The notes beneath the pieces were generated by a model. It was not told the origin of the DNA. It did no database searches and saw nothing but the letters and a program-made list of their open reading frames with translations. Position numbers and translations under genes: made by a program. A stretch of 64,000 nt of DNA from contig NC_057711.1 of NCBI RefSeq assembly GCF_004010195.1, positions 53,285,750 to 53,349,749 on the forward strand, read 5' to 3'. Below are positions 7,171 to 62,601 of the stretch, in pieces; position 1 is the stretch's first letter; the number at the start of each line of letters is the position of its first letter. The stretch comes from Chiloscyllium plagiosum (lineage: Eukaryota).

Positions 7171-7459
7171 GGTGGTGTTGATGGTAGCCATGAGGTGCCG
7201 GTATTGGACTGGGGTGGACAAAGTTAAAAATCAGGGCTTTTGCCCAAAACGTCGATTTTCCTGCTCCACGGATGCTGCCTGACCTGCTATGCTTTTCCAG
7301 CACCACTCTGATCTAAACTCTGGTTTCCAGCATCTGCAGTCCTCACTTTTGCAAAGTTAAAAATCACACAACACCAGCTTATAGTCCAACAGGTTTATTT
7401 GGTATACTTCCAAATAAACTTGTTGGACTATATTACCTGGTGCTATGTGATTTTTAACT
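7171..7459. mobile_element. Fold-back Penelope-type terminal element with a second PLE-family fragment nested at 7234-7351
   Basis: Outer duplication ctgtttaatagaa (7158-7170/7460-7472); inner duplication caaagttaaaaatca (7219-7233/7352-7366); inverted arms. Confidence 0.8.
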
Positions 7460-7767
7460 CTGTTTAATAGAAACCTTGTAAACCAAGAGCCAAAAACAAA
7501 AGCAAAAAATCATTACTTCCCCTCTGCTCCAAATTCTCATGCTGCCTCTCAATCACCAAATTATATACTCACTCAGGCTGTGTCAAACTCTGGATATGGT
7601 CTCTCCTTCCCGATAGTGTGAAACTTACTGAATTCTAAGTTCCTCCAGTCCAGCTGTTGGATACTTCAGCACTTGCACTACATCTGAATTGGAGTGGAAT
7701 CCACATTCTAGTTCAGGATCACAAACAAAAGTCTTTGCCACTTTTGTAAATTGAAGATCACTGACTA

Positions 7768-8160
7768 GGGCGGCACTGCTGCTTTACACCAAGTTTGAAT
7801 CCACCTTAGGGCAATTGTCTGTGAAGAAGTTTGCACATTCTCCACATGCTCGGGTTTCCTCCAGGTGCTGGGTTTCCTCCCACAATCCAAAGACGTGCAG
7901 GTTGGGTGAATCAGCTATGCTAAATTGTCTATAGTGGTCCAGGGGTGTGCAGGTTGGGTGGATCAGCCATGCTAAATTGCCTATAGTGGTCCAGGGGTGT
8001 GCAGGTTGGGTGGATCAGCCATGGGGAATGGAGGATTACAGGGATAGGGTGGGATGGGGACGGGGATGGGTCAGGATGAAGTGCTCTTTGGAGGATCAAT
8101 ATATACTCAATGGGCTAAAAGGCCTGCATCATACTGTAGAGATTCGATGATTCTATGACT
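7768..8160 (+). mobile_element. HE1-type tRNA V-SINE, degenerate, with internal 52-bp tandem duplication
   Basis: gggcggcac head, ggtttcctcccacaatccaaaga core, as in 60382-60696. Confidence 0.8.
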
Positions 8161-8338
8161 TGAAACTCTCTGGAATTTGGAAATCTCACACATTAATCCC
8201 TAAATTGTGAATCACCAGAAGTTTGTTATCCTTCAAATATAACTAAACACATTCCGAAGACGTCTACAGTCTGACATATAACTGTTTCCTGAGTTTGCAA
8301 ACACATAACTTTAATGTGTGAATCTTGTATTCTGACAG

Positions 8339-8459
8339 GTGTCGATATATGCTGCGCCAGATAAGTGGAGTCAGACACATTATGCACTGGAGGCTGCCGT
8401 GAAACTCTTGGAGTTTTATGAACATTACTTCAATATCTACTACCCACTTCCAAAGCAGG
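8339..8459 (+). CDS. ERAP2: ERAP2-like M1 aminopeptidase, exon equivalent to human exon 5 ([40 protein letters not shown])
   Basis: tgacag acceptor, G|gtaaat donor, 121 nt; YPLPKQD typical of ERAP-type M1 peptidases. Confidence 0.93.
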
Positions 8460-8998
8460 GTAAATCAAACATTGGGTTTCAGTATAGATATGAAGTAAAA
8501 TATATTATACAATAAGGTCATGCAAGTTGTAAAGTGTGGGAAAATTGATTGGAAAAGGGCTGAGAGAAATGGGGGGTACTAATCTCATAGGAGTAGAGTA
8601 GGTAGAGAGAGAGAGAGACTGTGAAAGAAGAGGTGAAGAATAGAGATTATGGGGGAGGGGAATTGGACAGGCTGAAAATCTAGCAGGTGATAGGTGTGGA
8701 GTGGATTTCTTTTGGTTTCTGATCCCTTCACTGAATACAGTCTGAAGTACTTAATTGTCTGTTAAGTGCTTTGGGACTTCCTAAAATTAGGCAAAATATG
8801 ACCAAACAGCAAATTCTTTATTTCAGTGAATTAGTTCAGTGAGCAATGTTTTGAATTAAGTGATGCCAAAATAAATGTAAATTGTTGAATCTAAATTCTC
8901 TTTCAGGTCTTATACTGTGACATTGTAATTGTTATTGATACGATAAATGATTGAGAAAGCACATTAAGAAGTAATACAATGAGAAATTTATTTTTTAG

Positions 8999-9153
8999 AT
9001 TTAGTTGCAATTCCAGACTTTCAGTCAGGAGCCATGGAGAACTGGGGTTTAACGACTTACAGGGAAACATCTCTACTGTATCACCCTGAAACGTCCTCTG
9101 CATCAGATAAACTGTGGATTACCATGGTGATAGGTCATGAACTGGCTCACCAG
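8999..9153 (+). CDS. ERAP2: ERAP2-like exon 6: [23 protein letters not shown]...HELAHQ (GAMEN and HExxH motifs)
   Basis: ttttag acceptor, CAG|gtactg donor, 155 nt, phase-compatible with neighbours. Confidence 0.96.
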
Positions 9154-17200: not shown

Positions 17201-17724
17201 TTATTATTTTCCTTTCAAACTAGAAAGCATCTCTTAGAAGCCTGTTACTCAGGTTACTTTAATGATTTCAGAAATTAAATAAAACAATCTCCTCATTATT
17301 GCTCGTCAGGCATTGGTTGTGTTATGCACCATCATGTGATCATTCCTGACTTTGGAAAAGAGTAAAATAAACCCACCACGCTAAACATAGTTGAAGCAAT
17401 GACCTTGTAAACAGATTTATTGAACAAAAATAGATCACTGTGACGCATTTCAAATTTGCAGTAATCACAGACTTCACTATCTACTTTCAAAATGACACAA
17501 AATAGTGTTCATTTGCTGTATGAAATGGCAGTGGGACCAAAACCCAAATATTAATCTCTGGCTCAATTGATCTTTTTGTTAATTTTCTTTTACTTTACAG
17601 ATTACATCACGTTTACATTCCTACTCATCACTTGTTTTGACTTCAGAATGTGATAAATAAATATCTCTAATCTGTGTTTGAAGACCTAAATCATTGTTTG
17701 AAGGCCTAAACCATTGTCTCATGG

Positions 17725-18075
17725 ATTTCTGAGTAAGGGTCACTGAACCCCAAACATTATCTCTGATTTATCACCACTGTTTTTGCCAGATCTGCTGGGC
17801 TTTTCCAGCAATTTCTATTTTTAGGTCTAGTGGATTGTTTATTTTATAATCAAAGAAAATCTTGTAGGATACGTGATGCAACTCATAAACCAACATAGCT
17901 GATGGAAATTTCTGTTGGATTAACTACTCAATTGGAACAAAAGTAAAAGCAAATTTCTGCAGATGCTGGAATCTGAAACCAAAAGAGAAAATGTTGGAAA
18001 ATCTCAGCAGGTCTTGCAGCATCTGTAAGGAGAGAAAACAGCTGACATTTTGAGTCGAACTGACTCTTTGTCAAA
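17725..18075. mobile_element. Two decayed PLE terminal fragments (17725-17822 plus; 17940-18075 minus) with eroded hammerhead cores
   Basis: ctgagta-agggtc/aaccc-caaacat; reverse-strand ttgacaa-agagtc/gactc-aaaatgtc; gatgctgc..gacctgctg..ttttcc motif. Confidence 0.6.
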
Positions 18076-24835: not shown

Positions 24836-25810
24836 GTAAGATTCTTATGTGTTACTTGACCAATATTTATTCATAGTGATAAAAATGATAATGATGGAAA
24901 CTACATGATAAAATTTGAAGGTTTAACATTAATATTACATTTTTTAGATATAATTAAGTGCACTAAATTCAAAAGAGAACAAAATTGACTGGGAGACTTA
25001 GAAAAGATCAGAGCTTTCCCAGTTTGTAGACTTAATAGACACGAAACTTACTGTTGGTCATGTGTCAGTTGAGTTTCATGTGAATATATTGTCTCATGTC
25101 ATGGAGCAGCTTGAATCACTGTTGACCATTACAAATTTTCAATAGCAAGCATGTATGCAGAGCCATTTTATGAAACACTTTGAAAGTTTGGAAATATTTG
25201 CAGCAACCTGGTTATGTATGTGTACAAATTCAATTAATGGTTTTCCCATTTTACCAAAGCTCTCCTTGAACCTACAAATACCAGTCATAGTAAAGTCCCC
25301 AAAGAACTTAAGGCACTTTGCTTATGGATTTTTAACATCCATCCTCCAAAGCATATAAATTCATGCTTTGTAATGCTTCCATGTGCAACAGTAGATTTAA
25401 AACCTCACTCACCCCAAATAATCAGTCATCATGTTAAGGGAGTGGCTTTAGACAATTCTGTTATGGAGACCATCATACCATAATCCAATTTTGTCCCCTA
25501 CTCAGCATGCAATAAAGTAGCAAGAGAACAAACTGGAGAGGAAACCCTGTTTGTTTTACCAGGGGAAATGAGCTAGCTGTCATGTGAATGTTGATAATAG
25601 ACTTGGCTATGTCATGACTTACCATAGCCTAATGACTGAACACACAACTAATTCTCCCTTATCTCTCAGCAACATATCAGATTTCCATTTATCTAATGAA
25701 CTATGGGCGATCTCTGTAGTTAATCTTTAAATATGTGTTAATTTTATGAGATTTTACACCAACTGTCTTTCACCTATGAGTATAATTGTGTGCTGCTACT
25801 TATGTTTCAG

Positions 25811-25995
25811 GGATATATCCTGCAATTTTTCAAACACCTGATCGATAAGCAGTCATGGAGTGATGATGGCACGGTGTCAGAGCGATTACTGCGGTCCAAT
25901 CTCCTGGAACTCGTCTGTGAACTCGAATATCCTCCTTGTATTCAGAAAGCATCCGACTATTTTAATCAGTGGAGGAAATCCAATGGAACCATGAA
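25811..25995 (+). CDS. ERAP2: ERAP2-like exon 15: GYILQFFKHLIDKQSWSDDGTVSERLLRS...WRKSNGTM
   Basis: tttcag acceptor, AA|gttagt donor, 185 nt. Confidence 0.94.
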
Positions 25996-26858
25996 GTTAG
26001 TAACCATTAAAATAGTTTCCCATTTGTGTCTTGTGATGCTGTTTTGCTTAGCACCTTATCATGCCTTTTTGGGAAGTTTTAATATATTGAAGTGTTATTG
26101 TGTACACAAAAGAGTAATAAGATGAATGACCCAGTCATCTGTTTTGGTTACTACTAGTTAAGGACAGCATTAATAGCTATGGGACCTCTCTACCTAATGT
26201 ATCAAAAAGGTCTCATGACTCTGCTCTTTCTCCACTTGGAAGTTACTGGCATTCCATCATCGACAAGATTTAATTTGAACGACAGTCCCTCCGAGATCTA
26301 TATTGGTGTCCCTGGAGTTTACACCCATCTTTACCTATACATGTAAGAATGTTGTCCAGTTCAGAAAGTATATGATTTCTCCTGAATTAAACATTACAAA
26401 AATGAGTTTTATTTCTTCATGAATTGATTGAAAGATTTCTTTGCACATTGTGGATACATGGGAAAGGATTACATTAGCGATGTGGGGGCTGCAGTGCAGA
26501 GCCCACCCACGATCACGGTGACTTTCCTGGCAGTGATGTTAATTGCTGTAAGGCAAGACCTTTAACCTTTTTCTCAGGAGGAATTCCTGCCTTAGAGAGC
26601 CAGTCACATGGCCAGCCACTGTGTAGTACCAGTAGCGCCAGCCAGCAGATGTCTCTACTGCTAGTACTACAGGCAGTCCCACCAGGCCCATGGAAGGCAA
26701 GAGAGTCTTTCCAGGCCCAGGTAAGGCAAGAATCTCAGCAAGGGCTGGAGTGAGAGGATCTTAGGTTCAGGAGGCTCTGGTAGGCTTAAATGGACCGAAA
26801 TGCTTGCCAACATCCACAATGTATGCCACTGCCCTTTGCCAGACAGGAGCTGTATGCA

Positions 26859-27137
26859 GGAGAGAAAGTGAGGACTGCAGATGCTGGAGAGTCAGAGTCA
26901 AAAAGTGTGGCACTGGAAAAGTAGAGCAGGTCAGGCAGCATTTGAGGAGCAGGAGAATTGATGTTTGGGGCATAAGCCCTTCATCAGGGATTCGGGTGGT
27001 GAGGGGTAGGGGAAGGGTGCTGAGATATAAATAGGAGGATGGGGGGTGGGGCTGGGGGGAAGGCAATAGGTGGATGCAGGTGGGAGGTGTTTGTGATAGG
27101 TTGGTGGGGAGGGCGGACCGGATAGGTGGGAAGGCAG
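26859..27137 (-). mobile_element. Penelope pLTR fragment with decayed hammerhead (26956-26990)
   Basis: Reverse strand ctgatga-agggc-ttat-gccc-caaacatc; same family as 54884-55071. Confidence 0.8.
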
Positions 27138-27338
27138 GTTACCCCTGGCTAACGCACCTAACAGTATGGGCAATTTAGCATAGCCAATTCACTTAACCTG
27201 CACTTCTTTGGATTGTGAGAGGAAACCGGAGCACCCGGAGGAAACCCACGCAGACACAGGGAGAATGTGCTATGTCCACCCAGACAGTCACCTGAGGTCA
27301 GAATCGAACCCGGGTCCCTGACGCTGAGGCAGCAGTGC
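27138..27338 (-). mobile_element. HE1-type SINE, partial, fused to the PLE fragment
   Basis: Matches 60480-60672. Confidence 0.85.
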
Positions 27339-27731
27339 GGGTAAAGATGCAGATCTTCCTATATAGCACATGTCTACAACCCCCCTGTCCTGCCCCGAGT
27401 AGAATAACAGAAGGATGGAATGAAGCCAGTAATTGGTCACTTAGGGGCTGCAGTGAGCTCAAGGATGGGTAGAGTACCAGATGCCTGTAAAATCTTAGAT
27501 AGGTTTACAACAAACAAAAAGACTATCCACTGGATACTACATGTCCCCTGCCTTCATGCCCATCAGTGGAGAAGTAAAATCCAGCCCAGAAAAAATCAAG
27601 AGTCAAAGAATACACTTCTCAAAGGTCTGATGAAAAAATGTTATAATTTCTTGTAATAAAAACAGAATTGATCTTATTGAGGTCAATTTTCCAATCCTGT
27701 AATCATCCAGCATGAGACCAGAAAATGTGAG

Positions 27732-27822
27732 GGAATGGGTGTGGGTGAGTTATTCTTCAGAGAGTCAGTGTGGACTCATTGGGCCGAAGGGCCTGTTTCC
27801 ACACTGTAGGGAATCTAATCTA
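27732..27822 (+). mobile_element. HE1-type SINE 3' tail
   Basis: gggccgaagggcctgtttccacactgtagggaatctaatcta. Confidence 0.8.
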
Positions 27823-27968
27823 AGAACGTATTGATAAAAATGATCAAATGTCACAGAGCCAGTTTTCTAAACATGCCTTTAGCTGTTTCTTGTGAATGAG
27901 TATTCTACAGGGGAATTTGACAAGCAAACACACACTCTTTTATTGAGCACATGCTGTTAATTTTGTAG

Positions 27969-28130
27969 CTTACCAACTGATGTCCTGGAGGTTGTGTACT
28001 CTGTGGGTGCCCAGAGCAGTGATGGATGGGAATACCTTCTGAAGAAATACACCCAGTCAGTGTCTGGTGCTGAAAAGAATAAGATTGTGTCTGCATTGAC
28101 AAGTAGCAGAGATCCAGAAAAACTGGAACG
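27969..28130 (+). CDS. ERAP2: ERAP2-like exon 16: LPTDVLEVVYSVGAQSSDGWEYLL...DPEKLE
   Basis: ttgtag acceptor, CG|gtatgt donor, 162 nt. Confidence 0.94.
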
Positions 28131-29419
28131 GTATGTAACATATTTCTATATCATCAGATCTCTTATGGCATCTTACACAGTGAGTCAGAAGTCATATAGC
28201 GAAAGGGAAAGGCTGGCCTGTGGACATGGTTCAAAGTGTATACATAGGACTTTGAATGAGTCACTGCAGTACTTTGAGAAGATGAAGTAAATGGTACTAC
28301 AAAGTGTTTACAGCAAAGAAACAGGCCATTCGGCCCAACAGGTCATTGTTTATGTTTCAGCTTAATCTCCTTCCACATTTCTTCATCCGTCCCTATAATT
28401 GTATTCTTTTATTTATTGACCCTCCCTATTTTTATCCAACTTTCTCTTAAATACATCTATGCCAGCTACATGGGGTGTTCATTATGATAATGAGTTCCAC
28501 ATTACAATCATTCTGATGAAGATGTTTCTCCCGTCTTCTAACTTGGGTTTATTAATGACTACCTTATGTTTATGATTTCCAGTACTAATCTTCTCTATGT
28601 TTATCTTACAAACCCTATCAATATTTAAAGATCTCCAGAAGAATACAAACTCTTAGCTCTGTTATCACTTATCTTTTGATTTGCTTGATTTTGTCCTTGG
28701 AGAGTAATGAATAAGAGAGGAGGAAGGAAGTATTCCTCTTGGATTGGATGGGAATTCACTCCACTTGGCCTGTGGGATCCTATGATGATCTGCCTTTGGG
28801 AGATGAAGCCTTGGGCTCTGAGAGTCTCCTGGACTGCTGTGGGGAGGTTGGCCTTTTGAAGCTGTGATCTCTGTGTTCAGCAAGGGGACTGCTCCGTCAA
28901 TAGAAAATGCCGGTGAATGTGACAATTCCATGTAAATTGGGCCATAATAGCTTAAACTTATTGCCTAACTCCAACTATGTGCTGGAATTTAAGAGTATAA
29001 ACCTCAATTTTTATGTTTTTAAAAAATAAATCAGTATGTATAATTGAAGAGAATTCAAATATCTCATTTTTAAGGGTTGTACAGTTGGTTCTGCTTTAAT
29101 GCGTGTTTCTTCAACGTGAATTGAAAGATCTAGATTGTTATCTGTAGAACGTGAACTTTCCTTACTTGTATTGGCTATAATGTGATAAACTCACATCCCA
29201 TTAGTTTGAATGGCATGGCTATTGCACGGTTTTCTTATACCGTGAGATTTCATGAGACCAGGATTATCGTATTTTATCAGAACTGACTGTAATTAGATCT
29301 GGTTTTTGCTGTCCTTTTTTATTAGGTTGATTGATATTAGGTTCCCCAAGAATAGATTGCAAGTAGTTGCAAGTGCTGGGGATTTGAGCAGATTGTGGAT
29401 GTTTTATAAGTAAGTCTAA

Positions 29420-29790
29420 GTCTATAAATAGTTAAAGGTGCAGAGACAGCATTCAGTGGAGTGGTATACTCTTCCTGTCATATTTGGGAGATCAGGGAGC
29501 AGATGACTGTCTGTGGGAAGTGTATTTGGATGCAGCTCTTATCAGACTGCATGCATTGATTGGAAAGGTAGTTGGATGCACTGAGGAATTTAAAGGAGCA
29601 AGGCAGTGTGATGGATAGTAGAATCAGGGAGTTGGTCATAGAGCAGATACAGTCAGCAGTATAGGTGACTGTCAGGAGAGGTAGGCAGGTAGTGCAAAGT
29701 CTCCTTTGCCTCTTTCCCTCACAAATAAGTATGCAATTTTGGATCCTGCTGGGGAATGGCCCCTCAAAGAAAAGTAGCAGTGATATCCAG
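29420..29790 (+). mobile_element. CR1 ORF1 remnant
   Basis: VCGKCIWMQLL and PLTNKYAILD-like translations, homologous to 4787-5188. Confidence 0.6.
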
Positions 29791-29841
29791 GCTTTGGGAC
29801 CATGACTGACATGAACCCAAGGGCCTCCTGGCTCAGAGGTA

Positions 29842-32874: not shown

Positions 32875-32899
32875 GGGGCACTACCACTGCACCACAAGC

Positions 32900-37198: not shown

Positions 37199-37280
37199 AT
37201 TTCAGCTTGGTTCATTTATTGTCCGATGGCTTATATTAGGAACAACATCTCGCTTTTCATCAAAAGAAGAATTGAAAGAG
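37199..37280 (+). CDS. ERAP2: ERAP2-like exon 18: FQLGSFIVRWLILGTTSRFSSKEELKE
   Basis: tctcag acceptor, GAG|gtcagt donor, 82 nt. Confidence 0.92.
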
Positions 37281-37652: not shown

Positions 37653-38190
37653 TAGAGTCATAGAGCTATACAGCACGGACACAGACCTTTCCGTCCAATT
37701 TGTCCATGCCGAACAGATATCCTAACTTAATCTAGTCCCATTTACCAGTGTTTGGCCCGTATCCCTTTGAACACTTCCTATTCACATATCCATCCAGAAG
37801 CCATTTAAAGATTGTAATTGTACCAGCCTCCAATACCTCCTCTGGCAGCTCATTCCATACACACACCACCCTCTGTGTGAAAAAGTTAGCACTTAGGTCC
37901 CTTTTAAATCTTTCTCCTCTCACCTTAAACCTGTGTTCGCTAGTTTTGAACTCCGCCACCCTGGGGAAAAGACATTGGCTATTTACCCTGTCTATACCCC
38001 TCATGATTTTATAAACTTCTTTAAAGTCATTCCTCAGCCTCCGATGCTCTAGGGAAAATAGCCCCAGCCTATTCAGCCTCTCCCTTTTGCTCAAATCCTC
38101 CAATCTTGGCAATAACCTTGTAAATCTTTTCTGAGCACTTTCAAGTTTCACAATATCCTTCCTATAGCAGGGAGACCAGAATTGAATGTA
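37653..38190 (-). mobile_element. CR1 3' fragment
   Basis: QFWSPCYRKDIVKLE...NFFTQRVVCVWNELP peptide. Confidence 0.92.
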
Positions 38191-39264: not shown

Positions 39265-39300
39265 ATTCGACGTTTCGGGCACAGGCCCTTCTTCAGGAAT
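39265..39300 (-). ncRNA. Minimal type I hammerhead ribozyme, intact core
   Basis: ATTC CTGAAGA A GGGC CTGT GCCC GAA ACGT C GAAT. Confidence 0.8.
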
Positions 39301-39567
39301 GAGCAGAGAGTGTTCAGCAGGAGAAGATAAAAGGTAGGGAGGAGGGACTTGGAGGAGGGGCGTTGGAAATGTGATAGGTGGAGAGAGGTCAAGGTGAGGG
39401 TGATAGGTCGGAGTAGGATGGAGGCGGAGAGGTCAACAAGAAGACTGCAGGTCAGGAAGGCGACGTGGTCGACGGTGCCCTCCACCGCATCTCCTCCACT
39501 TCCAACTCCCCTCCTCCAAGTCCCTCCTCCCTACCTTTTATCTTCTCCTGCTGAACACTCTCTGCTC

Positions 39568-39603
39568 ATTCCTGAAGAAGGGCATGTGCCCGAAACGTCG
39601 AAT
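39568..39603 (+). ncRNA. Minimal type I hammerhead ribozyme, intact core; predicted cut after 39599
   Basis: ATTC CTGAAGA A GGGC ATGT GCCC GAA ACGT C GAAT. Confidence 0.8.
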
Positions 39604-42011
39604 CTTCTGTTCCCTAGATGCTGCCTGACCTGCTGTGCTGTTCTGGAGAGAAGTGAGGGGGGAGGTGTGGGCGCAAGTGTTGCACCTCCTGCGGTTGCAA
39701 GGGAAGGTGCCGGGAGTGGAGGTTGGGTCGGTAGCTGGTGTGGATCTGACAAGGGAGTGGCGGAGGGAGTGGTCTGTACGGAAGGCTGGTAGGGGAGGGG
39801 AGGGAAATATATCCTTGGTGCTGGGGTCTGTTTGGAGGTGGCGGAAGTGACGGCAGATGATGCGCTGTACATGGAGATTGGTGGGGTGGTAGGTGAGGAC
39901 CAGTGGGGTTCTGTCCTGGTGGCGGTTGGAGGGGCAGGGCTATTTTCATCTTGAAATTGATGCTCATTTGAAGGAAATTAACTTGCAGGGCTCCAATGTC
40001 AGAGCAGGAATATGAGACTGACTGGATTACTTCACAGGGAACGGGTATGGACTTGATGTGCTGAATGATCTCCTTCTGAATGACTGTATGGTTAGAAAGA
40101 TTAGTGGAGAGATTCACCCTTCCAGAAGAGACATTGGTGGCTAGCTGAAGGCCTGCCCAGTAGTTACAAAGTGCGTTTGGAAGCTAAACAAGCTCCTCAT
40201 GGGATCTTTGCTCCTCACTGGGTGGAGGTCCTGTTGTTGGGAGCTGCTGACCGATCTGAATGGCTGGAAGCTTCATCAGTCCTTCAGCATCAGAGCTTTA
40301 TAGTAGGCACTGCCAGGACTGCAAACAGACCTGGAAGAAGGCCACATGGATCCCAAATCCCAGAAAGCTTGGAGACACTGTGCTGGATTTTTTTTTGGTA
40401 ACTCTGGGAGGGGAGAAGGGAGACTGTGTTTTACAGAATGAGCATTTGGAAGGAAGCAAGGAGTTGTTAATTTCTCAGTTCTGCCCATACTGGGCAAGGG
40501 ACACACACCAACTATAGCATCCTCCCCTTCTTTCCCACTGTTAAAGGACTTTTAAAAAAAAGCCATTATGAATCTTATTCCTGCGCAACTATCCACGTCA
40601 ACCATATTGTGGCATTGGCAGCGTAGTATAGGCACTCATTGAGCATTTAACAAGCACAATTGACCTTGATTATTTACTTATGTATAGTGGGCAGGCTGTT
40701 AATGTTGGCACCCAGCCACCCCTCAAGGGTGAGCTTGTTTTGGAGGTGAGGATAGGTAGAGGGGGGAGGGGGAGGGGGGGAGTGACAGACTACACACCTG
40801 AATGTTATTACACTCTTTCACTCCATAAGCTTGTAATATTCCACATGATCTCTCTAAGAAGTGGATTTTCCTGTCCCAGTAATGAATTGCTACTATCAAG
40901 CCAAACCCTGCCATGTGTAGGCGACTGCGGGAAATGACTCTAGCTAATCCTTCTGACATTCTCGCCAAAGATCACAAGCACCTTCAGAAGGTCTTTAGAG
41001 ATGGTCTATGGGGAAGTTGTCGAACTGCTGACACTTCTGGAAGGAGAAAGCCCAATAGTAGGCATACATCCTTTACCACTGGACCTAAGATCTTACTTTT
41101 TAAGCCTCACACAAGTGTGAGAAATTTAAAAATACAAAATTGACTCCTTCACATTTCTGGGTCTTTCTGTTTCTTCTCAATGGCCTCCTATGACTGCAAA
41201 CAATAGATTTTTATTGGGTAAGAGTACCACTGGGTATAAAGCAAAGACAGGTAAATAAGATTAGAATATTATCTAGTTTAATGGCAGGACAGGTTGAAGG
41301 GGCTCAGTGGTCCATTCCTGTTCCTATATTCTAATTCCTTTCTGCTGGAAATGCTGTGGCAGTCTGCTTTGTTCACCAGGAATGGCAGACCTCACTCTTA
41401 GTTACAGCGATCTTCCAAGAAGCCTAACCTGCCAGATAATGACCTCTTCATCCAAGAAACTATGTCTGTTGCCTGAAGGGTATAACTGCTGTCTTCCCTC
41501 TCCTCCTGTCGAAGGACCGAAACCTAGTCTTCAGTCTTCCTGATTTAGAAAACAAATATTCATATTTTAAAACCATTACTTTTGATTCTTCTTTTCTGTC
41601 ATACCATGTACCATCTCGCGAAAACAGATACCTGCCCAGAAACTCACCATGACACTGCAGTTGATTTTGCTAACTAGTGCATGAGAATCACAGACATGAT
41701 TTGCATTTTGTGCCATGTCACCACCAAAATCTACAGAAGCCTTATTGTAAGTCACTGAACACTTCCGTTTATAATGCAAACATTACTAAGACATTTTGAT
41801 TCCATTTTATTTTGCTAGATACTCTACCAGTTCTTTTTTCCAAGGTTACTAAGTATAAAAAATTGTTGCCCTAGATATTACAGCAATAAACAGGTAACAT
41901 TCTGACGATCTACAGAGAAGAACAAGTTAGCATTTTTAATATATGGACTCTATATTTATAGGTATTTTGGTGCATAAAAGCAGCTCAACAGTGAATTTGT
42001 TTGTCTTCCAG

Positions 42012-42164
42012 GTGGAACTGTTTTTTGATTCTATAAAGGAACATAGCTCCCAGCTAAGATGCACTCAGCTTGCCCTGGAAAGCATTCAGAAAAACATTAG
42101 GTGGCTGGAGAGGAATCTGGACGTCCTCAGAAGTTGGTTACTGAATATAACTGCAAATCCATAA
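42012..42164 (+). CDS. ERAP2: ERAP2-like last coding exon: VELFFDSIKEHSSQLRCTQLALESIQKNIRWLERNLDVLRSWLLNITANP*
   Basis: ttccag acceptor, TAA stop; NIxWL...WL C-terminus of M1 peptidases. Confidence 0.94.
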   Translation: MELFFDSIKEHSSQLRCTQLALESIQKNIRWLERNLDVLRSWLLNITANP

Positions 42165-45267: not shown

Positions 45268-47419
45268 CCAGGAGTTGGGAACTACAGACTGGGAGCAATT
45301 GTTCCACAGGAAGGGCACCACAGATATGTGGAGACCGTTTAAGGAGCAGTTGTTGCAAGTGATGCATGAATTTGTTCCTCTGAGACAGGTAAGAAGGGGT
45401 AAGATTAAGGAACCTTGGATGACGAGAACAGAGGAGCTTCTTGTCAAAATGAAGAAGGCAGCTTACATAAGGTGGAGGAAGGAAGGATCTAGCACAGCTT
45501 TAGAAGATCTTGCTTGAAAGGAGCTCAGAAATGGACTAAGGAGAGCCAGGAAGGTGCACAAAAAAGGCTTGGCAAGAAGGATTAGGGAGAACCCAAAGGC
45601 ATTTTACTCATATGTGAGGAATAAGAGAATGATCAGGGAGAAGGTAGGGCCGATCAAGGATAGCAGATGAAACTTGTGCGTAGAGTCTGAGCAGATAGGG
45701 GAAGCTCTAATTGAGCTTTCTGCTTCAGTTTTCACTAATGAGAGGGACTTTGTTGTAAATGAGAACTTTGAGGAGCTGAGAAACAGGCTTAAACAGATCA
45801 AGATTGGTGAAGTTGATGTGCTGGAAATTTTGGCAAACATTAAGATTGATAAGTCCCCAGGGCCAGACCAGATTTATCCTAGGCTGCTCCAAGAAATGAG
45901 AAAAGAGGTTGCCAAGCCACTGGTGAAGATCTGTGCTTCCTCACTCTCCACGGGAGTCGTACGGGAGGATTGGAAGGAGGTGAATGTTGTTTCTCTTTTC
46001 AAGAAGGATAATAGGAAAATCCCTGGCAATTACAGACCAATCAGTCTTACATCTGTGATCAGCAAAGTTTTGGAAAGAATTCTGAGGGGTAGGATTTATG
46101 ACTATTTGGAAAAGCATAGCGTGATTAAAGGCAGTCAGCATGGCTTTGTGAGGGGCAGGTCATGCCTCACAAATCTTATTGAGTTCTTTGAGGAGGTGAC
46201 AAGACAGGTCAATGAAGGTCGAGCATTGGTTGTAGTGTTAATGGAATTCAGTAAGGCATTTGATAAGGTTCCCCATGGTAGGCTCATACATAAAGTCAGA
46301 AAGTGTGGGATACAGGGAGATTTGACTATCTGGATTCAGAATTGGTTGGCTGACAAAAGGCAGAGATTGGTTGTAGATGGAAAGTATTCTGCCTGGAGGT
46401 CAGTGTTGAGTGGAGTCCCACAGGGCTCTGTTCTTGGGCCTCTGCTCTCTGTAGATTTTATAAATGACTTGGATGAGGAGGTTGAGGGGTGGTTAGTAAA
46501 TTTGCAGATGACACAAAGGTTGGAGGTGCTGTCGATAGTGTCAAGGGCTATTGCAGTCTGCAGCGCAACATAGACAGGGCACAGAGCTGGGCTGAGAAAT
46601 GACAGCTGGAGTTCAACCTGGACAAGTACGAAGTGATGCATTTTGGAAGGTTGAACTAGAATGCTGAATATAGGATTAAAGACAGTCTTCTTGGCAGTGT
46701 GGAGGAACAGAGGGATCTGGGTGTTCAAGTACATAGATTCCTCAAAGTTGCCACCCAAGTGGATAGGTTTATTAAGAAAGCATATGGTGTTTTGGCTTTC
46801 ATTAACAAGGAGATCGAGTTTAAAAGCTATGAGGTTTTGCTACAGCTCTACAAGTCCCTGGTGAGACCACACTTGGAATATTGTGTCCAGTTCTGGTCGC
46901 CCTACTATAGGAAAGATACAGAGGCTTTGGAGAGGGTGCAAAGAAGGTTTACTAGGATGCTGCCTGGACTGGAGGGATTGTCTTATGAAGAGAGGTTGAC
47001 TAAGCTCAGACTTTTCTCTCTGGAGAGAAGGAGCAAGAGAGGTGACCTGATCGAGGTATACAAGATAATGAGAGGCATGGATAGAGTCAATAGCCAGAGA
47101 CTTTTCCCCAGGGCAGTATTGGCTGGCACAGGCGGTCATAGTTTTAAGGTATTAGGGGAAAGGTATAGAGGGGACATCAGAGGAAGATTCTTTACGCAGA
47201 GAGTTCTGAATGCATGGAATGCATTGTCAGCAGTGGTGGTGGAAGCAGAGTCATTAGGGACGTTTGCGTGACTGATGGACGTGCACATGGATAGCAGTGA
47301 ATTAAGAGTGCGTAGGTTAAGTTATTTTATTTTACATTAGGATTAATCCTCGGCACAACATAGTGGGCCAAAGGGCTTGTTTTGTGCTGTACGTTTCTAT
47401 GTTCTATGTTTTATGTTTA
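45268..47419 (+). mobile_element. 5'-truncated CR1 ORF2 (RT) with stops/frameshifts
   Basis: [35 protein letters not shown]; (ttctatg)n tail. Confidence 0.95.
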
Positions 47420-51873: not shown

Positions 51874-52185
51874 ACTAATGTCATTTACAAAATACTGTGA
51901 AGGACTGTAACAAACACTACATTGGGCAAATAGGCAGAAAACTAGCCACCAGGATACATGAACACCAACTAGCCGCAAAAAGACATGACCCTCTCTCACT
52001 AGTATCCTTACATATGGATGAGGAAGGACACCATTTCAACTGGGACAACACATCCATCCGAGGACAAGCCAAACAAAGACACGCACGAGAGTTCCTAGAA
52101 GCATGGCATTCCAACCGGAACTCTATCAACAAACACATCGAGTTAGACTCCATCTACCATCCCCTGAGAAAAGGAACAGGAAGCG
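51874..52185 (+). mobile_element. Penelope GIY-YIG endonuclease fragment inserted in an old reverse CR1 (about 51733-52480)
   Basis: NVIYKI..KDCNKHYIGQIGRKLATRIHEH...REFLEAWH...NSIN. Confidence 0.9.
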
Positions 52186-52616
52186 ACATTCCAGATATTT
52201 ATCTCCAAGGAAGAAATTCTTTTGCATCTCACTTTGAAACAGTGTCTCCCTAATCTGCAAGTATGCAACCTAATTTGAGATTCGCCCACTAGTGGAAAAA
52301 CCTTCTCAACATCTACCCTGTCAAGCCCCCTCAGAATCTTCTATGCTTGAATAAAATCATCTCTCACTATTCTAAACCCTAATGAGTCAAGGCCTAACCA
52401 AGTTAGTGATTCTTAACAAGTCAACCCCTTCATCCAAGGAATCAGCCAAATGAACCCCTTCTGAACTGTTTCCAATGTCAGTATCTTCAATACAAAGAAC
52501 ATGTATTGGACCCTCTTTCTGGATAAATAGTTACCCAATTATCCTTGGCAATCTTGCCTCTGCTCTTCTGCCACAGCCATACCAGTTTGATACTAATACT
52601 GCTCAAGCATTTAACA

Positions 52617-52920
52617 CTGGGACAGCATGGTGCCAGAGACCTGGGTTTGATTCCACCTCAGGTGTGGAGTTTGCACATTCTCCCTGTATCTGCATGGATT
52701 TCCTCTGGGCACTTCAGTTTCCTCCCACAATCCAAAGATGTGCAGGTTAGGTGAATTGGCCATGCTAAATTGTCCACAGAGTCTACAGGGATCTGTAGGT
52801 TGGATGCATTAGTCAGTGGTTAAATGTAGGGGAATGGGTCTGGGTGGGTTACTCTTCAGAGGGTCGGTGTGGACTTGTTGGGCCGAAGGGCCTGTTTCCA
52901 AACTGTAGAGCTTCTACGAT
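52617..52920 (+). mobile_element. HE1-type SINE
   Basis: V-domain gtggagtttgcacattctccc and 3' tail. Confidence 0.85.
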
Positions 52921-54700: not shown

Positions 54701-54883
54701 GTAAATGTGGGACATAAATCTATTCAGAAAGCCATATAATGTAATCGGTTAATGATCTGCAGACATTAACTGAACGACTTCTTTATGTTACAGCCTTGAA
54801 CTTTTTTAAAAAAAATCTTCCTTTATTGTATATCTGTTATTCCTGGGACGGTTCTTGCTTCTGTGGAGGGTTTCATAAACATG

Positions 54884-55071
54884 AAGGAGAAAGTGAGGAC
54901 TGCAGATGCTGGAGATCAGAGTCGAGAGTGCGGTGCAGGAAAAGTACAGCAGCAGGTCAGGCAGCAGGAGCAGGAGAATTGATGTTTCGGGCGAGAACCC
55001 TTCATCAAAACGTCGATTTTCCTGCTCCTCGATGCTGCCTGACCTGCTGTGCTTTTCCTGCACCTCACTCT
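54884..55071. mobile_element. Fold-back Penelope mini-element
   Basis: 16-bp duplication gggtttcataa(a/g)catg (54868-54883/55072-55087); inverted arms meeting at a truncated hammerhead. Confidence 0.85.
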
Positions 55072-57519
55072 GGGTTTCATAAGCATGTTATTTCCATTGC
55101 TGTTTAAAAGTAACCCCAGTTTCTCGTTTGACATCTCCTTTCTGCCAGCCGATCCGAATCGTAACTGTGATTGACCATTCATGTTGTTAAATATTGTCCA
55201 TTTCTGATATGCTAGTTTTGTCCTGCAGGTCCACATTTATGATAAAAGATAATATAATAGTGGCCACAAAATTATCTTGATAAAATCCCATGGAAAAAAA
55301 TGCAAGTTACAAAGAGTTTGAAGTGGTGGAAGCTATAAAGTCAGTGTGGATATCATCCCAACCAATTGTTCTGTGATTTGAATGACGGAAGGAATAACTC
55401 ACAGTTATACAATATGTAAATATTGCTGAAAATATTGCAACTAAAATGAAGACTTTTGATCTAATCTTTTCACGACAGTAAAACGGTCAATAATGGCATT
55501 AGGAGTTTAATGCAATAATACTTCGTGTGATTTAAGAAAAGCTGGTATTCTAATTAGCAACAGTTCCTTTGACTTGTCAGTCTTTATTCAAAATGATGGT
55601 TTATAGGTAATGATGACATTGTGTTTGGTGGGAGGACAGTTTGCTTGTACTGTTTATTATCATTGATGGGCCGCACCCTCACTATGAAAGCAGCTGTTGT
55701 GCTGATCCAAATCCCAGTGTGTGCTTGGAATATTCCTGTCTAAATGTGGCCATGAATTGTAAGTTTTCACTATAGTTATAGTTTTCATTTTTAAAATTCA
55801 AATTCTTAAAACATTGAATAAGAATTTAAAAGCTTTAATGGCAAATTAATGGAATCCAAAATAAGTAATGCACCTTGGTGTAGGTTCCTGTACCGTACAC
55901 ACTGGTGTAATATTCAGTCTGCTCAGCCAGGCTCCAGCAGTTGTATGATTGACGTGTGAGAAGACGATCTTACTGGAAGCTGAAGGAACACAATCTGGTA
56001 AAATGTTGATCTCCCTTTCTTATCTGGCTCTCCCCTTGCCTTAAATGTATTCCTATTTTTGTCACACTTGCACCTGATTGGCTCCCATTTTATCTCCGTT
56101 CAACAGCAAGCTGAATGTGCATAAACATCAAATGCGAGTGGTGACTAGTGCCACCCTTTCTGCCTAGGACTGAGGACGGACGGAAGCAATGAATCAAACA
56201 TAAAATCTAACAATGACAGAAGCAAATTAGATTAATAAAATTATTGCAAAGCCTAAAATCTTGAAAAACCTATCAGCTCCTGTGTTTTGTTTGTTCTTTC
56301 CATAGTATGTAAACTTCAGGTTTCAACTGCAATAAAAGTGTTCCGTTTAAACAAGATTCACGGTTTTAGCATCATTTAAGCTTGCTGACTTGCATTGTGT
56401 TTCAGTCCAGCTTTTTGTTCAAAATTCTCATTTTGATCCGTCCATGGTCTTGTTCTTTATTTCTGTGTTCTATTTGGAGGTCACTTTGTACCTTAGAAAA
56501 TGTTGATCTGTGCTTTGTGGCTTCGTCTATTACACGCACAAGTGGATGACACGGGTGCAATATTGAGATGATTTTATTTCCAGTTATTTTGGAGTTTTCT
56601 GACTTTGCTATTTGTTTTTTTTTAGGCTTCCTTTCCATGTATGCTGTTACCTATTTGTCAGTATCGTGTTGTCCTTCAGTTTTGTATGCGCAACCGCTAT
56701 ATTTGCATTGTGCATGTGTATGGAAGCAATTTTTGTTTTGTATTTAGGTGAACATTGTATTGTGTATGTTGTTTAACAAACAGATATGGATTTTTTTTTA
56801 ATGGGCAGTATGATTGATTAAGTGTAGAGCATCCCTGGACTTGACATTTAAGCCTAACGTCTTGTCTCCAGCCAGAGAAATGCATTGAGAGGAAAATAAT
56901 TTTGTTTTAGAAACAGTGAATTTAATTTGAATTTGGATAAATTTGGATGTAAATGCTGCAACAAGATGAAAAACCCAACTATCATTGACAACTTGGCTGA
57001 AAAAAAATAAGTGGACATGCATATATATAAATCGAGACCTTGCCCAAGTAAAAACTGATTTGATATTTTGCCATTGTTTTGATTTTTAACATACATATAG
57101 ATTATTGTGCAAATTCTGTTTATTCCTGTTTGCCAGCATTCAAAAATATGGTTGTTTTGAATTAATATTGCTGTCAATGGCGTGTTTTAAAAGCATTTTT
57201 TGGGGGGGAGTGTGCTCTTATGATTAAATAGTGGGAAGGCTGAAGCTGCTGTCTTTAGTCCATGCCACACTTTTTTGCTAACTTCTGGCTCCATGCCTCT
57301 CACTTGCAACTGTCTAAAGCTGCACCAAACAGACCCTTTCAACCTTGATGTTACGTTTAAGCCTGGGTAGGCTTTTGACTATATATCTACATCTTCACTA
57401 AGAATTAAGAATTACCATGCCTACAGGTGTAAATGTCCAAATCCACCACTCTGCAGATGATTGTGGCTATCTTCTGAAAGCCTCATCCAAAGGACTGGAG
57501 GACAGCCAATGCTCGATAA

Positions 57520-57980: not shown

Positions 57981-59449
57981 TCATTGTGTTTTTATTACCT
58001 CTAAAGTAGACTATTCCAGCTCATTCTTAGATTAGTCTCCCATCTTCCATCCTTTGTAAAGCTCAGATCATTTTGTATTCTTTTTTGCATGTGTCCTAAT
58101 TTACAGTAAGTCCCACGCACTCATCATACAATGCTATTTGTTGACATTGGTTCCCAGTCAGGCAACACCTTAACTTTAAAACTTTCATCTTGTTTTCAAA
58201 TTTCACCTTCTTCCTCTTTCTCTTTGTAACTTACTCCAGCCTCATAGCCCTCCCTGATGTGTGCTTCTCCAATTTTAATGATTCCACCACTAGTGACTGC
58301 TTTCAGTCTCTCTTGGTTCTAAGATTTTTCTCTTTTTCTCTCCTTTTGTTCTCTTCTCTGCTTTTTGGGTGGCAACTATTCATGATCTTGTCTATCATTC
58401 CTCTAGACACATGCTTTGTTTCCTTTTTTTGGCTTGTCTCACCACTATTCGTGGCCTTGCACCATGAGTCTTTTTATCATTTAACCTCTCTCATACTCCA
58501 CCCTGTTGCAGACTTCCCTTTTTGTTCATTGTGCTCCACCATCCCCATGTTGATTTATACTATATCTCTAATGTTATATTTCTAACATTGCCCAATTCTG
58601 ATGAAAAGTCACAGATTTGGAAACAAAAGCTGTATTTCCCTCCTTAATACTTTAATGTGCTTCTTAAAACCATTTTTATTAGGTTTTTGACCTAACTCTT
58701 CTTTATATGGCTCTGTCATTTTTTTAATAATGCTCCAGTGAAAGCACCTTGGGATATCTGCTACAGCAAGTGTGCTTGATAAATCAAATTTGTTTGGCAG
58801 CTTTAGGAATGCTTTGTTACTTTCCAATTGTGTGAATTACTTGAGAATGCTGCTGGCTGAAAAATCAGTAAATATGCAATATATTGATTAAATGTAAACC
58901 AGCAATATAAACGGAAATAATTATTTGATACAGCATTGATTGTATGCATTTATAAGGCTGTTTTTCATTGATTTCTGCAATGCTTGCAGCCTGGGTTATA
59001 TTTCTGCAATTTAATAAGCCGACCACTTGCACTAGTATTCCATATCCTTCAGCTGTGTGTGATGCATTGCTAATGCAAGTGCATTAGCTTGGTTTCTGAG
59101 CCACTTAATGAATTGAGCACAAAATGTAAGCAAATATTCCTGTTTGCTACAGAGAAAGTCAACATTGTCAAACGGTTCCATCCTTCTAAGTGCAGTTTCA
59201 AGCCATGGCTAAATTTCATGTTTTAGTTTTTTAGATTTCTATTAAGATCCAATGTATGATTTGAATGAGAAATTAGGTTTCCTGACTTTTGTCTCATTTC
59301 TCTCTTTATCCTCATCTCCAAAACCATATTAACGCATCATTTGTTTTATTGCTGCTGGGGGAATTGCTGTGATAAAAATGGCTGCCGTGTCTGTCTGCAA
59401 AATAGCAGGTATCGTATTTTATCGCATACAAAGTGTTTCTTTACATAAA

Positions 59450-60370
59450 CTAGAGTGCGACTGTGGGTGACAGAAGCAGGTGGCCCCATTTAAATTCATA
59501 TGAAAGAGAAGGGAATGTCAGAAATAAAGGATCACTAAGGGACTCATGGTGGAACTTAAGGAACTGAAAGCACCAGGAGAAAAAAATGCAACAGATAAAG
59601 TTTGGGGGATTAATTCCATGACACCCCCCGGATCTTCTGATCTTTTCCCTAACTGTCAAAGAGGTGGTTTCAGAAATAATAGATACACATTATTATTCTG
59701 TAAAATTTCCTAGATTATAGTACAGTTCTTTTGGATTAGTAATTATAAACATGACATCTCGATTGAAGAAAGGAGGGAGGAGAGCAAACTGAGACCTACA
59801 GACCAATTTGCCAATTGGGATATAAGAATAAATAACCTTTCTCTAATTCTATACAGCATTGGTCAGCTCTTACCTTTTGGTGCTATGTGCAGCTTGGTCT
59901 CCATATCTATGAAAGGATGCATTGCCTTGGAGGTAGGACAGTGGAAATTCATGAGGTTGGTTCACTTCATTGGTCTCTTGGGATGGAAGTGTTATCCTGT
60001 GATGGTTGAATAAATCTGAGAAGTTTAAAAACATTAATGGTGATCTTATGAAAACACACAAGATTCTGTGGGATTGGCTTCATGAGAGGCTGTTTCCCTT
60101 GGCTGAGTAGTTTAAAATATTGGGGGCGCACTGACAATTAGTGAATCATTTCATCAGTTAGGACAGCAGTTACAATAAAGGTCGCTTGAATGATTGCAAT
60201 TCTTTGAAATGTTGACCTCAAAGATTGTGATGCTCCAATTTAACATGCACAATAATGAGATCATTACGTTTTTGATCATTTCAGGAATTAAGGAAAGTGG
60301 CAAGTGGGCAGGAAAATGGAATTGAGACATAGGATCAGCCACAATCACAATTAAAATCAGGACAGGCACA
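59450..60370. mobile_element. Highly degenerate CR1 fragments
   Basis: Remnants of KKG..YRPI and RT C-terminal motifs. Confidence 0.55.
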
Positions 60371-60381
60371 TGTGATCTTAT

Positions 60382-60696
60382 ATTAGATTAGATTACATTA
60401 CAGTGTGGAAACAGGCCCTTCGGCCCAACAAGTCCACACTGACCCGCCGAAGCGAAACCCACCCATACCCCTACATTTACCCCTTAACTAACACTACGGG
60501 CAATTTAGCATGGCCAATTCACCTGACCCTGCACATCTTTGGACTGTGGGAGGAAACCGGAGCACCCGGAGGGAACCCACGCAGACACGGGGAGAACGTG
60601 CAAACTCCACACAGTCAGTCGCCTGAGGCGGGAATTGAACCCGGGTCTCAGGCGCTGTGAGGCAGCAGTGCTAACCACTGTGCCACCGTGCCGCCC
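60382..60696 (-). mobile_element. Full-length, young HE1-type tRNA V-SINE
   Basis: Reverse strand gggcggcacggtggcacagtgg (A box), ggttcaattccc (B box), CpGs preserved, (aatct)n tail. Confidence 0.92.
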
Positions 60697-60859
60697 ACGC
60701 TCTCTATTCTTAGAGAGAGAAATGGGGCAGATGTAGGGGAAAAGGTAATTACAAAAAAAAATCTGGAATTGATCATGAATACTGACTTGACAATTTGGAC
60801 ACAGTTACCCCTTTCTTAGCTGTGCAATTCTAAGGCCAGCAGCAAGACTAAAAGGTCTT

Positions 60860-62010
60860 GGTAACTATAGGCCGGTGAGTCTCACTTCTGTTGTGGGCAA
60901 AATCTTAGAGAGAATTGTAAGGGATAGGATTTATGAACATCTGGATAGGAATAATGTGATCAAGGATAGTCAGCATGGTTTTGTGAAGGGCAGGTAGTGC
61001 CTCACAAACCTTATTGAATTCTTGGAGAAGGTGACTAAGGANNNNNNNNNNNNNNNNNNNNNNNNNNNNNNNNNNNNNNNNNNNNNNNNNNNNNNNNNNN
61101 NNNNNNNNNNNNNNNNNNNNNNNNNNNNNNNNNNNNNNNNNNNNNNNNNNNNNNNNNNNNNNNNNNNNNNNNNNNNNNNNNNNNNNNNNNNNNNNNNNNN
61201 NNNNNNNNNNNNNNNNNNNNNNNNNNNNNNNNNNNNNNNNNNNNNNNNNNNNNNNNNNNNNNNNNNNNNNNNNNNNNNNNNNNNNNNNNNNNNNNNNNNN
61301 NNNNNNNNNNNNNNNNNNNNNNNNNNNNNNNNNNNNNNNNNNNNNNNNNNNNNNNNNNNNNNNNNNNNNNNNNNNNNNNNNNNNNNNNNNNNNNNNNNNN
61401 NNNNNNNNNNNNNNNNNNNNNNNNNNNNNNNNNNNNNNNNNNNNNNNNNNNNNNNNNNNNNNNNNNNNNNNNNNNNNNNNNNNNNNNNNNNNNNNNNNNN
61501 NNNNNNNNNNNNNNNNNNNNNNNNNNNNNNNNNNNNNNNNNNNNNNNNNNNNNNNNNNNNNNNNNNNNNNNNNNNNNNNNNNNNNNNNNNNNNNNNNNNN
61601 NNNNNNNNNNNNNNNNNNNNNNNNNNNNNNNNNNNNNNNNNNNNNNNNNNNNNNNNNNNNNNNNNNNNNNNNNNNNNNNNNNNNNNNNNNNNNNNNNNNN
61701 NNNNNNNNNNNNNNNNNNNNNNNNNNNNNNNNNNNNNNNNNNNNNNNNNNNNNNNNNNNNNNNNNNNNNNNNNNNNNNNNNNNNNNNNNNNNNNNNNNNN
61801 NNNNNNNNNNNNNNNNNNNNNNNNNNNNNNNNNNNNNNNNNNNNNNNNNNNNNNNNNNNNNNNNNNNNNNNNNNNNNNNNNNNNNNNNNNNNNNNNNGGT
61901 ATATGGAGGATAGTGGGCTAGTGTAGGTTAGGTGGGCTTGGATCGGCGCAACATCGAGGGCCGAAGGGCCTGTACTGCGCTGTATTCTTCTATGTTCTAT
62001 GTTCTATGTT
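60860..62010 (+). mobile_element. Young 5'-truncated CR1 (same family as 29842-32874), with N gap 61042-61897
   Basis: NYRPVSLTSVVGKILE; 3' end nearly identical to the reverse complement of 29842-29955. Confidence 0.92.
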
Positions 62011-62403
62011 AAATGTGACCGTGTCACAATTTGAGTACTCAAAATTTTAGCTTCAAAATAAATTAACCCACCATTGTCTTTTCACCTCTCAGATATTGTA
62101 TGCAGTATTAATTTCATCACTATATTATGCAGATTTTATTTTAAACCTCCAATATCCATTTTCAAACACTGCATTGATGATCCTCTCTTCCTGTCCTTTG
62201 ATACCTCCGTCATTGTAGCATAAATTAGGTAGTACATAATCTCAGCTGGACAGACAGAATTTACTTTCTGAATTGTAATCATTAAAATATGTTGGGTGAA
62301 TGTCAGATGGTTAAAGTGCTTAGTCCCATGGAGGAAATTTAGAGACTCTGCCAGATCTCAGACAAAAATCTCCAGACCCCACATTGCAGCCCCATTAACA
62401 CAA

Positions 62404-62601
62404 TATGGAGATGCCGGTGTTGGACTAGGGTGTACAAAGTTAAAAATCACACCAACACCAGGTTACAGTCCAACAAGTTTAATTGGAAGCAAGAGCTTTT
62501 GGAGCGCTGCTCCTTCATCACAACCACCTGAAGAAGGAGTAGCGCTCTGAAAGCTAGTGTTTCCAATTAAACCTGTTGGACTATAACCTGATGTTGTGTG
62601 A
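62404..62601. mobile_element. Fold-back Penelope mini-element
   Basis: 12-bp duplication ccattaacacaa (62392-62403/62602-62613); about 73-bp inverted arms. Confidence 0.88.
62525..62559 (+). ncRNA. Minimal hammerhead ribozyme, core intact; predicted cut after 62556
   Basis: CAC CTGAAGA A GGAGT AGC GCTCT GAA AGCT A GTG. Confidence 0.72.

Follow-up and report, generated by a model that had tools for sequence, protein, structure and literature searches.

Minimal type I hammerhead motifs in the ends of several Penelope-like element subfamilies of Chiloscyllium plagiosum, with a fold probably kept in active master elements

Minimal hammerhead ribozymes have been described in the ends of Penelope-like elements (PLEs), and in addition to this location four hallmarks set them apart: families with covarying helices, an extra base between positions 9 and 10.1, a G10.1-C11.1 pair and a palindrome (PMC4209133). 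Here we present an analysis of a 64,000-nt window of the Chiloscyllium plagiosum genome (3.56 Gb; the window is NC_057711.1, 53,285,750-53,349,749), in which an earlier note, made from the sequence alone, had listed such motifs with several different stems. The motifs are very probably minimal type I hammerheads seated in the pseudo-long terminal repeat (pLTR) or tail ends of several PLE subfamilies, with the fold kept in the active master elements and the genomic copies dead on arrival. The kind of motif is already known, and the copies in the window are further members of it.

The published PLE hammerheads resemble those described here both in anatomy (type I, only a 4-nt palindrome as helix III, a short helix I, an unpaired base between 9 and 10.1, G10.1-C11.1) and in their distribution, with several covarying consensus families per genome that occur mostly as dispersed single copies and close opposite-strand pairs (PMC4209133). 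Helix II measures 4-5 bp in our families A and B and 6 bp in family C, compared with 7-8 bp in the Schistosoma families of that report, the main text of which names no shark. The Poseidon element of Anolis carolinensis (PAc) likewise has two 3' ends downstream of the hammerhead, 30-45 nt apart, and none at the cut site (PMC11167929). Most copies studied here are Neptune-like. The open reading frame (ORF) of PAc starts inside the hammerhead, and the main text of its description mentions no pile-up of 5' ends at helix I. The insertion units of Neptune and Penelope/Poseidon share with our copies the 5' truncation, the adjacent inverted copy and the optional tail (PMC8557442). In animal non-LTR retrozymes, too, type I hammerheads reach very high counts, within short repeats that lack coding capacity and are related to pLTRs. 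Retrozyme units, 170-400 nt long, follow one another head to tail and give rise to circular RNAs (PMC7229834; bioRxiv 2026.07.22.740005), whereas the copies analysed here are scattered singly or as fold-backs and vary in their 5' ends. A literature search, which lay mostly outside subscription journals and to which supplements may still add, returned no report of these motifs in a shark, nor of the helix I 5'-end pattern described below.

Nine subfamilies with at least five copies were used, A4 (one copy) and B2 (two copies) being left out. Within family A, the stem is GGGC/GCCC in A1a and A1b, GGGUC/GACCC in A2 and GAGUC/GACUC in A3, all with the palindrome ACGU and one common tail. Family B has the palindrome AGCU, with the stems GGAGC/GCUCC in B1 and GAGGC/GCCUC in B3. 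In subfamilies C1-C3, ACGU goes together with U as the extra base and a helix II of 6 bp; this third hammerhead type was not on the earlier list, and no C hammerhead lies within the window. All nine consensuses show the type I order of CUGANGA ... GAAA ... UH core with a closing helix I, and all catalytic core bases and the NUH triplet are retained in 9/9, though the helices have been rewritten. The unpaired base between A9 and G10.1 is A in families A and B and U in C (222 A and 20 U among 244 motifs). At 10.1-11.1, where the search pattern itself required R and Y, the pair is G-C in 191/244 motifs and G-U in 45/244. The 15.1-16.1 palindromes are ACGU and AGCU, the two to which the search was limited, without a real helix III. 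In A1a, the most abundant subfamily, one position of the 4-bp helix I is a U-U mismatch; the most successful ribozyme is thus the one that looks weakest.

The case for selection on the fold comes from the comparison between subfamilies. With the register set from the core, 60 of the 63 cells (9 subfamilies x 7 pairs) hold Watson-Crick pairs, and 15 additional pair types occur; the mean of a permutation that ignores kinship was 23.8, and 0 of 20,000 permutations scored as high. In slid registers only 10-14 of 54 cells were Watson-Crick. Within lineages, both sides of a pair have changed 10 times (five times in A, twice in B and three times in C), against 2 broken consensus pairs, the U-U in A1a helix I and an A-G in C2 helix II, and helix I varies as much as helix II between subfamilies. 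B3 is a real subfamily: the GAGG strand occurs in 417 copies, with the compensating partner in 15 of the first 30 and, by hand count, in 50 of 100 listed copies, against 0/30 in loci from the AGCU-pattern search. Among single copies, 879 helix II cells included 5 compensated, 36 broken and 29 G-U pairs. The 11 aligned window copies alone scored 0.288 for covariation against 0.281 when shuffled, with 223 of 500 shuffles as high, so the covariation that the earlier note had read among the window copies themselves does not rise above chance. Four of its stems, GGGC/GCCC (A1), GAGUC/GACUC (A3), GGAGC/GCUCC (B1) and GAGGC/(G)CCUC (B3), are true family stems; GGGU/GCCC, GGAGU/GCUCU, GGGUC/AACCC and AAGUC/GAUUU, about half of its list, are single-copy decay of family stems. 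The families are indeed PLE terminal families, but the ACGU families of the window, A1, A2 and A3, are subfamilies of the one lineage with the common tail. Both palindromes and the preponderance of decay at CpGs were borne out.

C11.1 and G12 together form one CpG, and the C-to-U change at C11.1 leaves a wobble pair. The change of G12 to A removes the general base (PMC6155905). In one A1a subfamily counted genome-wide, the lethal G12A occurs in 2,207 copies and the harmless C11.1U in 2,027, and among sampled A1a copies (n = 182) there are 29 of each. G12A being as common as C11.1U there, the catalytic base shows no protection in these copies. Selection on the fold is likely to have acted on the transposing master elements and not on the genomic copies, which are likely dead-on-arrival products decaying neutrally; the inference from compensatory variation to selection on the fold thus stands between subfamilies, for the masters, and does not extend to the copies. 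Several observations weigh against this interpretation. Core positions, when pooled, carry fewer changes than flank positions (17/580 vs 144/2255 and 10/611 vs 392/6787), and when bases were matched, A with A, the difference was no longer significant in A1a (12/546 vs 22/546, p 0.12) or in C, while the core of family B was still less changed (1/216 vs 32/720, p 0.003). In family B the count is 22 for C11.1U and 13 for G12A (p 0.18), or 30 and 12 by hand count among 100 listed matches. In addition, a full-length ORF between two direct pLTRs was found in none of the 320 loci. The core/flank difference could be due to master variants in the flank together with ascertainment. A first decay count (core 142/1410 vs flank 364/5278) was set aside, truncated copies having passed as complete.

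The same figures bear on the idea that the host maintains many of the genomic copies as functional ribozymes, with intron processing as one conceivable use. The pooled deficit of core changes would fit, as would an intact core that lies in sense orientation within the final intron of the window's ERAP2-like aminopeptidase gene. Against these stand the equal frequency of G12A and C11.1U, the broken state of 10 of the 13 window copies and the position of the three intact ones in long fold-backs, and we hold host maintenance on this scale to be extremely improbable, although a few domesticated copies may exist among the ~185,000.

The expectation that hammerheads are very abundant in this genome was borne out. 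Across the whole genome, on both strands, the intact ACGU core has 154,965 exact matches (85 for a reversed-pattern control), and the intact AGCU core, searched with a narrower pattern, has 30,351 (control 0), giving at least 185,316 intact cores together against 85 in controls. When CpG-type decay was allowed, the matches came to 221,563 + 86,614 + 61,351 = 369,528 (controls 3,101). An arbitrary sample of 128 10-kb loci, placed at round-number coordinates and totalling 1.236 Mb, contained 79 intact cores, 54 of them with a helix II of 4 or more bp and a helix I, which scales to ~155,000 per genome. The same 1.236 Mb yielded 308 family ends found by tail alone, or ~250 per Mb, and the density of hammerhead ends in the window is average for this genome. 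Published counts of minimal hammerheads are ~4,000 in coelacanth and ~9,000 in Xenopus, obtained with different search rules (PMC4209133), and 126,247 type I motifs have been counted in axolotl by different methods (PMC7229834). The ~155,000-185,000 intact-looking minimal hammerheads found here, one per 20 kb, exceed these per-genome counts, and such a load shows how harmless monomeric minimal hammerheads must be in host transcripts.

The A1 motif lies 150-350 nt downstream of open frames of 649-674 aa (loci L124, L126, L127) with a reverse transcriptase (RT), a C-x4-C-x2-C linker and a GIY-YIG endonuclease; their domain matches are RVT_1, above the cut-off at E 2.5e-7, and GIY-YIG, just under it at E 3.2e-4. 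A piece of the window, 39640-39939, is 91% identical to the A1 protein. The C motif sits ~30-100 nt behind a GIY-YIG end without linker, and window positions 51897-52190 belong to the same family. A Zn-finger-like CX2-5CxxC linker between RT and endonuclease is a mark of Neptune that Nematis shares (PMC8557442); it is present in A1 and absent in C, and by this linker rule alone A would be Neptune-like and C Penelope/Poseidon-like. A PLE ORF lies on the same strand within 700 nt upstream of 32/137 A1 motifs (Neptune-like), 36/48 C1-C3 motifs (Poseidon-like), 7/84 B motifs and 2/32 A2/A3 motifs; many ORF-linked loci were fetched through their proteins, so these fractions show linkage and not frequency. 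For B, A2 and A3, only GIY-YIG-like pieces are seen, upstream in few copies, and the B protein pieces share 27-62% identity with the A1 protein. In A3 (L003, L016, L026) and A2 (L012, L021, L030), a pyrimidine-rich tract immediately upstream of the core leads into a CAG that overlaps helix I, resembling a splice acceptor; in the Penelope of D. virilis an intron ends at helix I (PMC4209133). The distal tail of family B ends in CATG(AC) in several copies (L296, L301, L210), possibly the ORF start codon of the next unit.

Most copies are short and lack an ORF, and retrozymes derived from pLTRs have been reported from one chondrichthyan (bioRxiv 2026.07.22.740005), as would suit short copies that are non-autonomous non-LTR retrozymes spreading through self-cleaved circular RNAs. 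Head-to-tail arrays are absent among the window copies, however, and of the 82 intact motifs in the sampled loci only 15 have another on the same strand less than 3.5 kb away, irregularly spaced at 0.2-2.8 kb. The 5' ends vary and run on into PLE ORFs, and the reads contain no circular joint. Such an origin is very unlikely in our view, and we retain the ends of PLEs as the source of the motifs.

The ends of the copies provide an in vivo readout on the open question of the hammerhead's role in PLE transposition. The 3' ends fall into two zones after H17, at ~53-65 and 92-99 nt in A1 and at 53-58 and 89-94 nt in B; these zones, ~35-45 nt apart, represent the PLE tail, which has been tied to two RT start sites (PMC11167929). 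Of 168 A1 copies located by tail only in the 128 loci, 53 begin at -35..-27 (helix I to C3), 28 at -26..-20, only 6 at -1..+2, the cut site, and 16 beyond -74, so that the hazard of ending per base is 0.089 for helix I and 0.010 for the cut site. None of 120 mutated, untruncated simulated copies was called at helix I, and uniformly placed cuts were recovered correctly (10 calls for 7 true, n = 118). In raw reads of run X21 over an A1a copy, depth climbs across helix I, from 43 to 147, but is smooth across the cut site (295 to 315), and 6 of the 12 read joints listed in run X15 land at helix I. The proposal that copies end 5' at the site of cleavage, as those of R2 elements do, was discarded, with only 6/156 copies at risk ending there. 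For A1, a common spliced leader ahead of helix I was discarded as well, as none of 29 non-inverted short A1 copies shared upstream sequence. A further 103 loose read ends at 39300 were discounted as support for the pile-up, their consensus resembling the upstream sequence of another subfamily.

At the helix I position, A1 has TCATTC and A2 has TCAGTT, while family B lacks a clear initiator-like sequence there. Both hexamers resemble the initiator consensus. The Penelope of D. virilis has an internal promoter with initiator and downstream promoter elements (PMC2377424). Tentatively, we suggest that transcription of the Neptune-like PLE may start at the first base of helix I, with the ribozyme as the RNA 5' leader, that internal priming on uncleaved leader mass-produces micro-insertions and that cleaved RNA is not the template; we regard this as possible, though the odds are against it. 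The most likely course of insertion, which belongs to the preferred account, is as follows: the active element would be transcribed and its protein would nick DNA and prime inside the RNA, 55-100 nt behind the hammerhead; in the anole element, reverse transcription does begin downstream of the hammerhead (PMC11167929). RT would copy through an uncleaved or re-ligated hammerhead template, mostly stopping at the first bases of helix I, and this stop would most likely be the RNA 5' end because of the TCATTC of A1 and the TCAGTT of A2. The products would be 85-135-bp inserts of hammerhead plus tail, often two joined head to head through priming on both nicked strands, and such short inserts would leave the motif strongly over-represented in the genome. 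If the tentative proposal of a ribozyme leader is true, the genome holds both the densest hammerhead load reported and a fossil record of uncleaved templates.

Several observations limit the pile-up and a start of transcription at helix I. No RNA read-start peak is seen at helix I or at the cut site, though the RNA reads cover both strands about equally and look like read-through. Family C has no 5'-end pile-up. In family B the peak (28/64) includes an artefact, since 7/15 short non-inverted B copies share upstream sequence. Inverted partners accompany 80/168 A1 copies and 33/64 B copies, and 35 of the 53 A1 helix I ends are inversion junctions. The pile-up might thus come from a protein-bound hammerhead dimer that stops RT, or from trimming of fold-back junctions after insertion, and this is a serious alternative that falls only a little short of an even chance; the inversion junctions, the missing initiator-like sequence of B and the flat read starts all accord with it. 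It fits less well with the 18 of 53 A1 ends that are not inverted, 4 of which have target duplications of at least 7 bases (control 3/291), and with the initiator-like hexamers of A1 and A2.

If the ribozyme acts in the masters, it would, by analogy with other PLEs, cut the element RNA only as a dimer or with protein; such dependence has been described (PMC4209133, PMC11167929), and dimer cleavage was shown by Lunse et al., as cited in PMC6765202. Energy alone does not favour the dimer, an imposed dimer of the 39296 copy giving -14.3 kcal/mol compared with -15.4 for two monomers, which also counts against catalysis as the function retained. The fold could instead be kept in masters for a non-catalytic task (a protein site, a promoter, an RT stop signal) or as a passenger, transposition needing no cleavage. 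The scarcity of 5' ends at the cut site is as expected on that view; moreover, the anole element still inserts normally in vitro when its hammerhead is mutated, and none of its RNA reads start at the cut site (PMC11167929), and Naiad PLEs thrive without hammerheads (PMC8557442). Still, the core bases and NUH triplet persist in all nine subfamilies, a retention partly built into the search patterns, and the anole ribozyme does cleave when protein is present (PMC11167929). We therefore consider a purely non-catalytic fold unlikely, and a hammerhead selected in active masters remains the preferred account.

Within the window, a strict scan (CUGANGA, a stem of 3 or more bp and GAAA, with 20 shuffles as control) gave three matches, 39296 (-), 39572 (+) and 62528 (+), against a shuffle mean of 0.4; allowing one core mismatch gave 15 matches against 6.3. 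Profiles built from genome copies recovered 13 remnants, which comprise all ten sites that had been noted, two of them being head-to-head pairs, and one 5' half that had been missed, a B3 hammerhead region at 33117-33165 (-). The motifs reported earlier are thus where they had been placed and belong to hammerhead families, yet the core is intact in only 3 of the 13. CUGANGA is absent altogether from the copy at 7234 and from the plus arm at 55006, and the core is broken at 17729, 18074, 26987, 34648, 55008, 58598 and in the minus arm at 62521. G12 is lost in six copies (7234, 17729, 18074, 26987, 34648, 62521) and C3 at the inversion junctions 55008 and 62521. Target duplications of 13-16 bp flank 5 of the 10 window sites tested. 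An Rfam scan of the window returned no hammerhead family, because the Rfam models do not cover the minimal form; it gave only 8 sub-threshold microRNA matches, to fold-backs.

Two of the intact copies lie in a young Neptune-like insertion at 39207-39940 (-), with a target duplication at 39192-39206 and 39939-39953. It comprises the ORF piece at 39640-39939 with its C-x4-C-x2-C linker, an inverted terminal arm at 39497-39643 and a terminal arm with tail. The A1b hammerhead at 39265-39300 (-) has helix I AUUC/GAAU, CUGAAGA, the extra A, GGGC/GCCC and GAA-ACGU, with a predicted cut after C 39269. The A1b hammerhead at 39568-39603 (+) is the one on the sense strand of the host gene's last intron. 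The third, an intact-core B1 hammerhead at 62525-62559 (+), has helix I CAC/GUG, the AGCU palindrome and two G-U wobbles from decay; it belongs to a B1 fold-back pair at 62404-62600 (both strands; target duplication 62391-62403 / 62601-62613). All three are predicted to be silent, with 39572 (+) sequestered by the inverted arm in a 147-bp hairpin and 62528 buried in its fold-back. At 39273-39274, two adenines of the core are affected by T>C in run X21, equivalent to A>G with respect to the ribozyme strand: 53/398 reads of one orientation carry the change, against 5/306 of the other. This could be A-to-I editing in fold-backs or a single expressed variant copy.

The remaining copies are decayed or partial. 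A family B fold-back at 7171-7458 (both strands) consists of tails only, both arms ending before the hammerhead, between 14-bp target duplications at 7157-7170 and 7459-7472. Nested in its A-rich tail is the A1a copy at 7234-7350 (+), which begins at helix II, has G12->A and is flanked by its own duplication (7218-7233 / 7351-7366); B tails directly followed by A1 ends also occur in loci L021, L038, L275 and L280, a hint that PLEs may target the tails of other PLEs. An old A2 copy at 17710-17822 (+) has G8 and G12 changed and helix II mismatched with respect to the family stem GGGUC/GACCC, and an old A3-like copy (GAGUC/GACUC) at 17944-18073 (-) combines a decayed 5' core with G12->A. The long-tailed A1a copy at 26864-26996 (-) has G12->C and the palindrome ACAU, and a B3 copy of the compensated GAGGC/GCCUC subfamily at 34529-34695 (-) has G12->A. 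The family C GIY-YIG fragment at 51897-52190 (+) stops short of its hammerhead. An A1a fold-back pair at 54884-55071 (both strands), with a 16-bp target duplication at 54868-54883 and 55072-55087, has a minus arm that starts from U4 and a plus arm reduced to the 3' half. A very old A2/A3-like remnant at 58592-58643 (+) gave a weak match (E 0.0046).

The host context is given by the 3' exons of the putative ERAP2-like gene at 25742-42164 (+), with coding pieces near 25.8, 28.0, 34.3, 37.2 and 42.0 kb and a stop at 42162-42164; human ERAP2 is the top PDB match for one of these M1 aminopeptidase exons (E 2e-15), LNPEP and ERAP1 being weaker. Fragments of long interspersed nuclear elements (LINEs) are plentiful, with RVT_1 and Exo_endo_phos domain matches, and include young CR1/L2-type pieces with RT and apurinic endonuclease frames at 29843-29955, 61898-62010, 30121-32880, 45671-47271 and 60859-62010, two of which adjoin assembly gaps. 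Repeats resembling short interspersed nuclear elements lie at 7872-8038 (three 52-nt units), 27167-27326 and 52662-52916.

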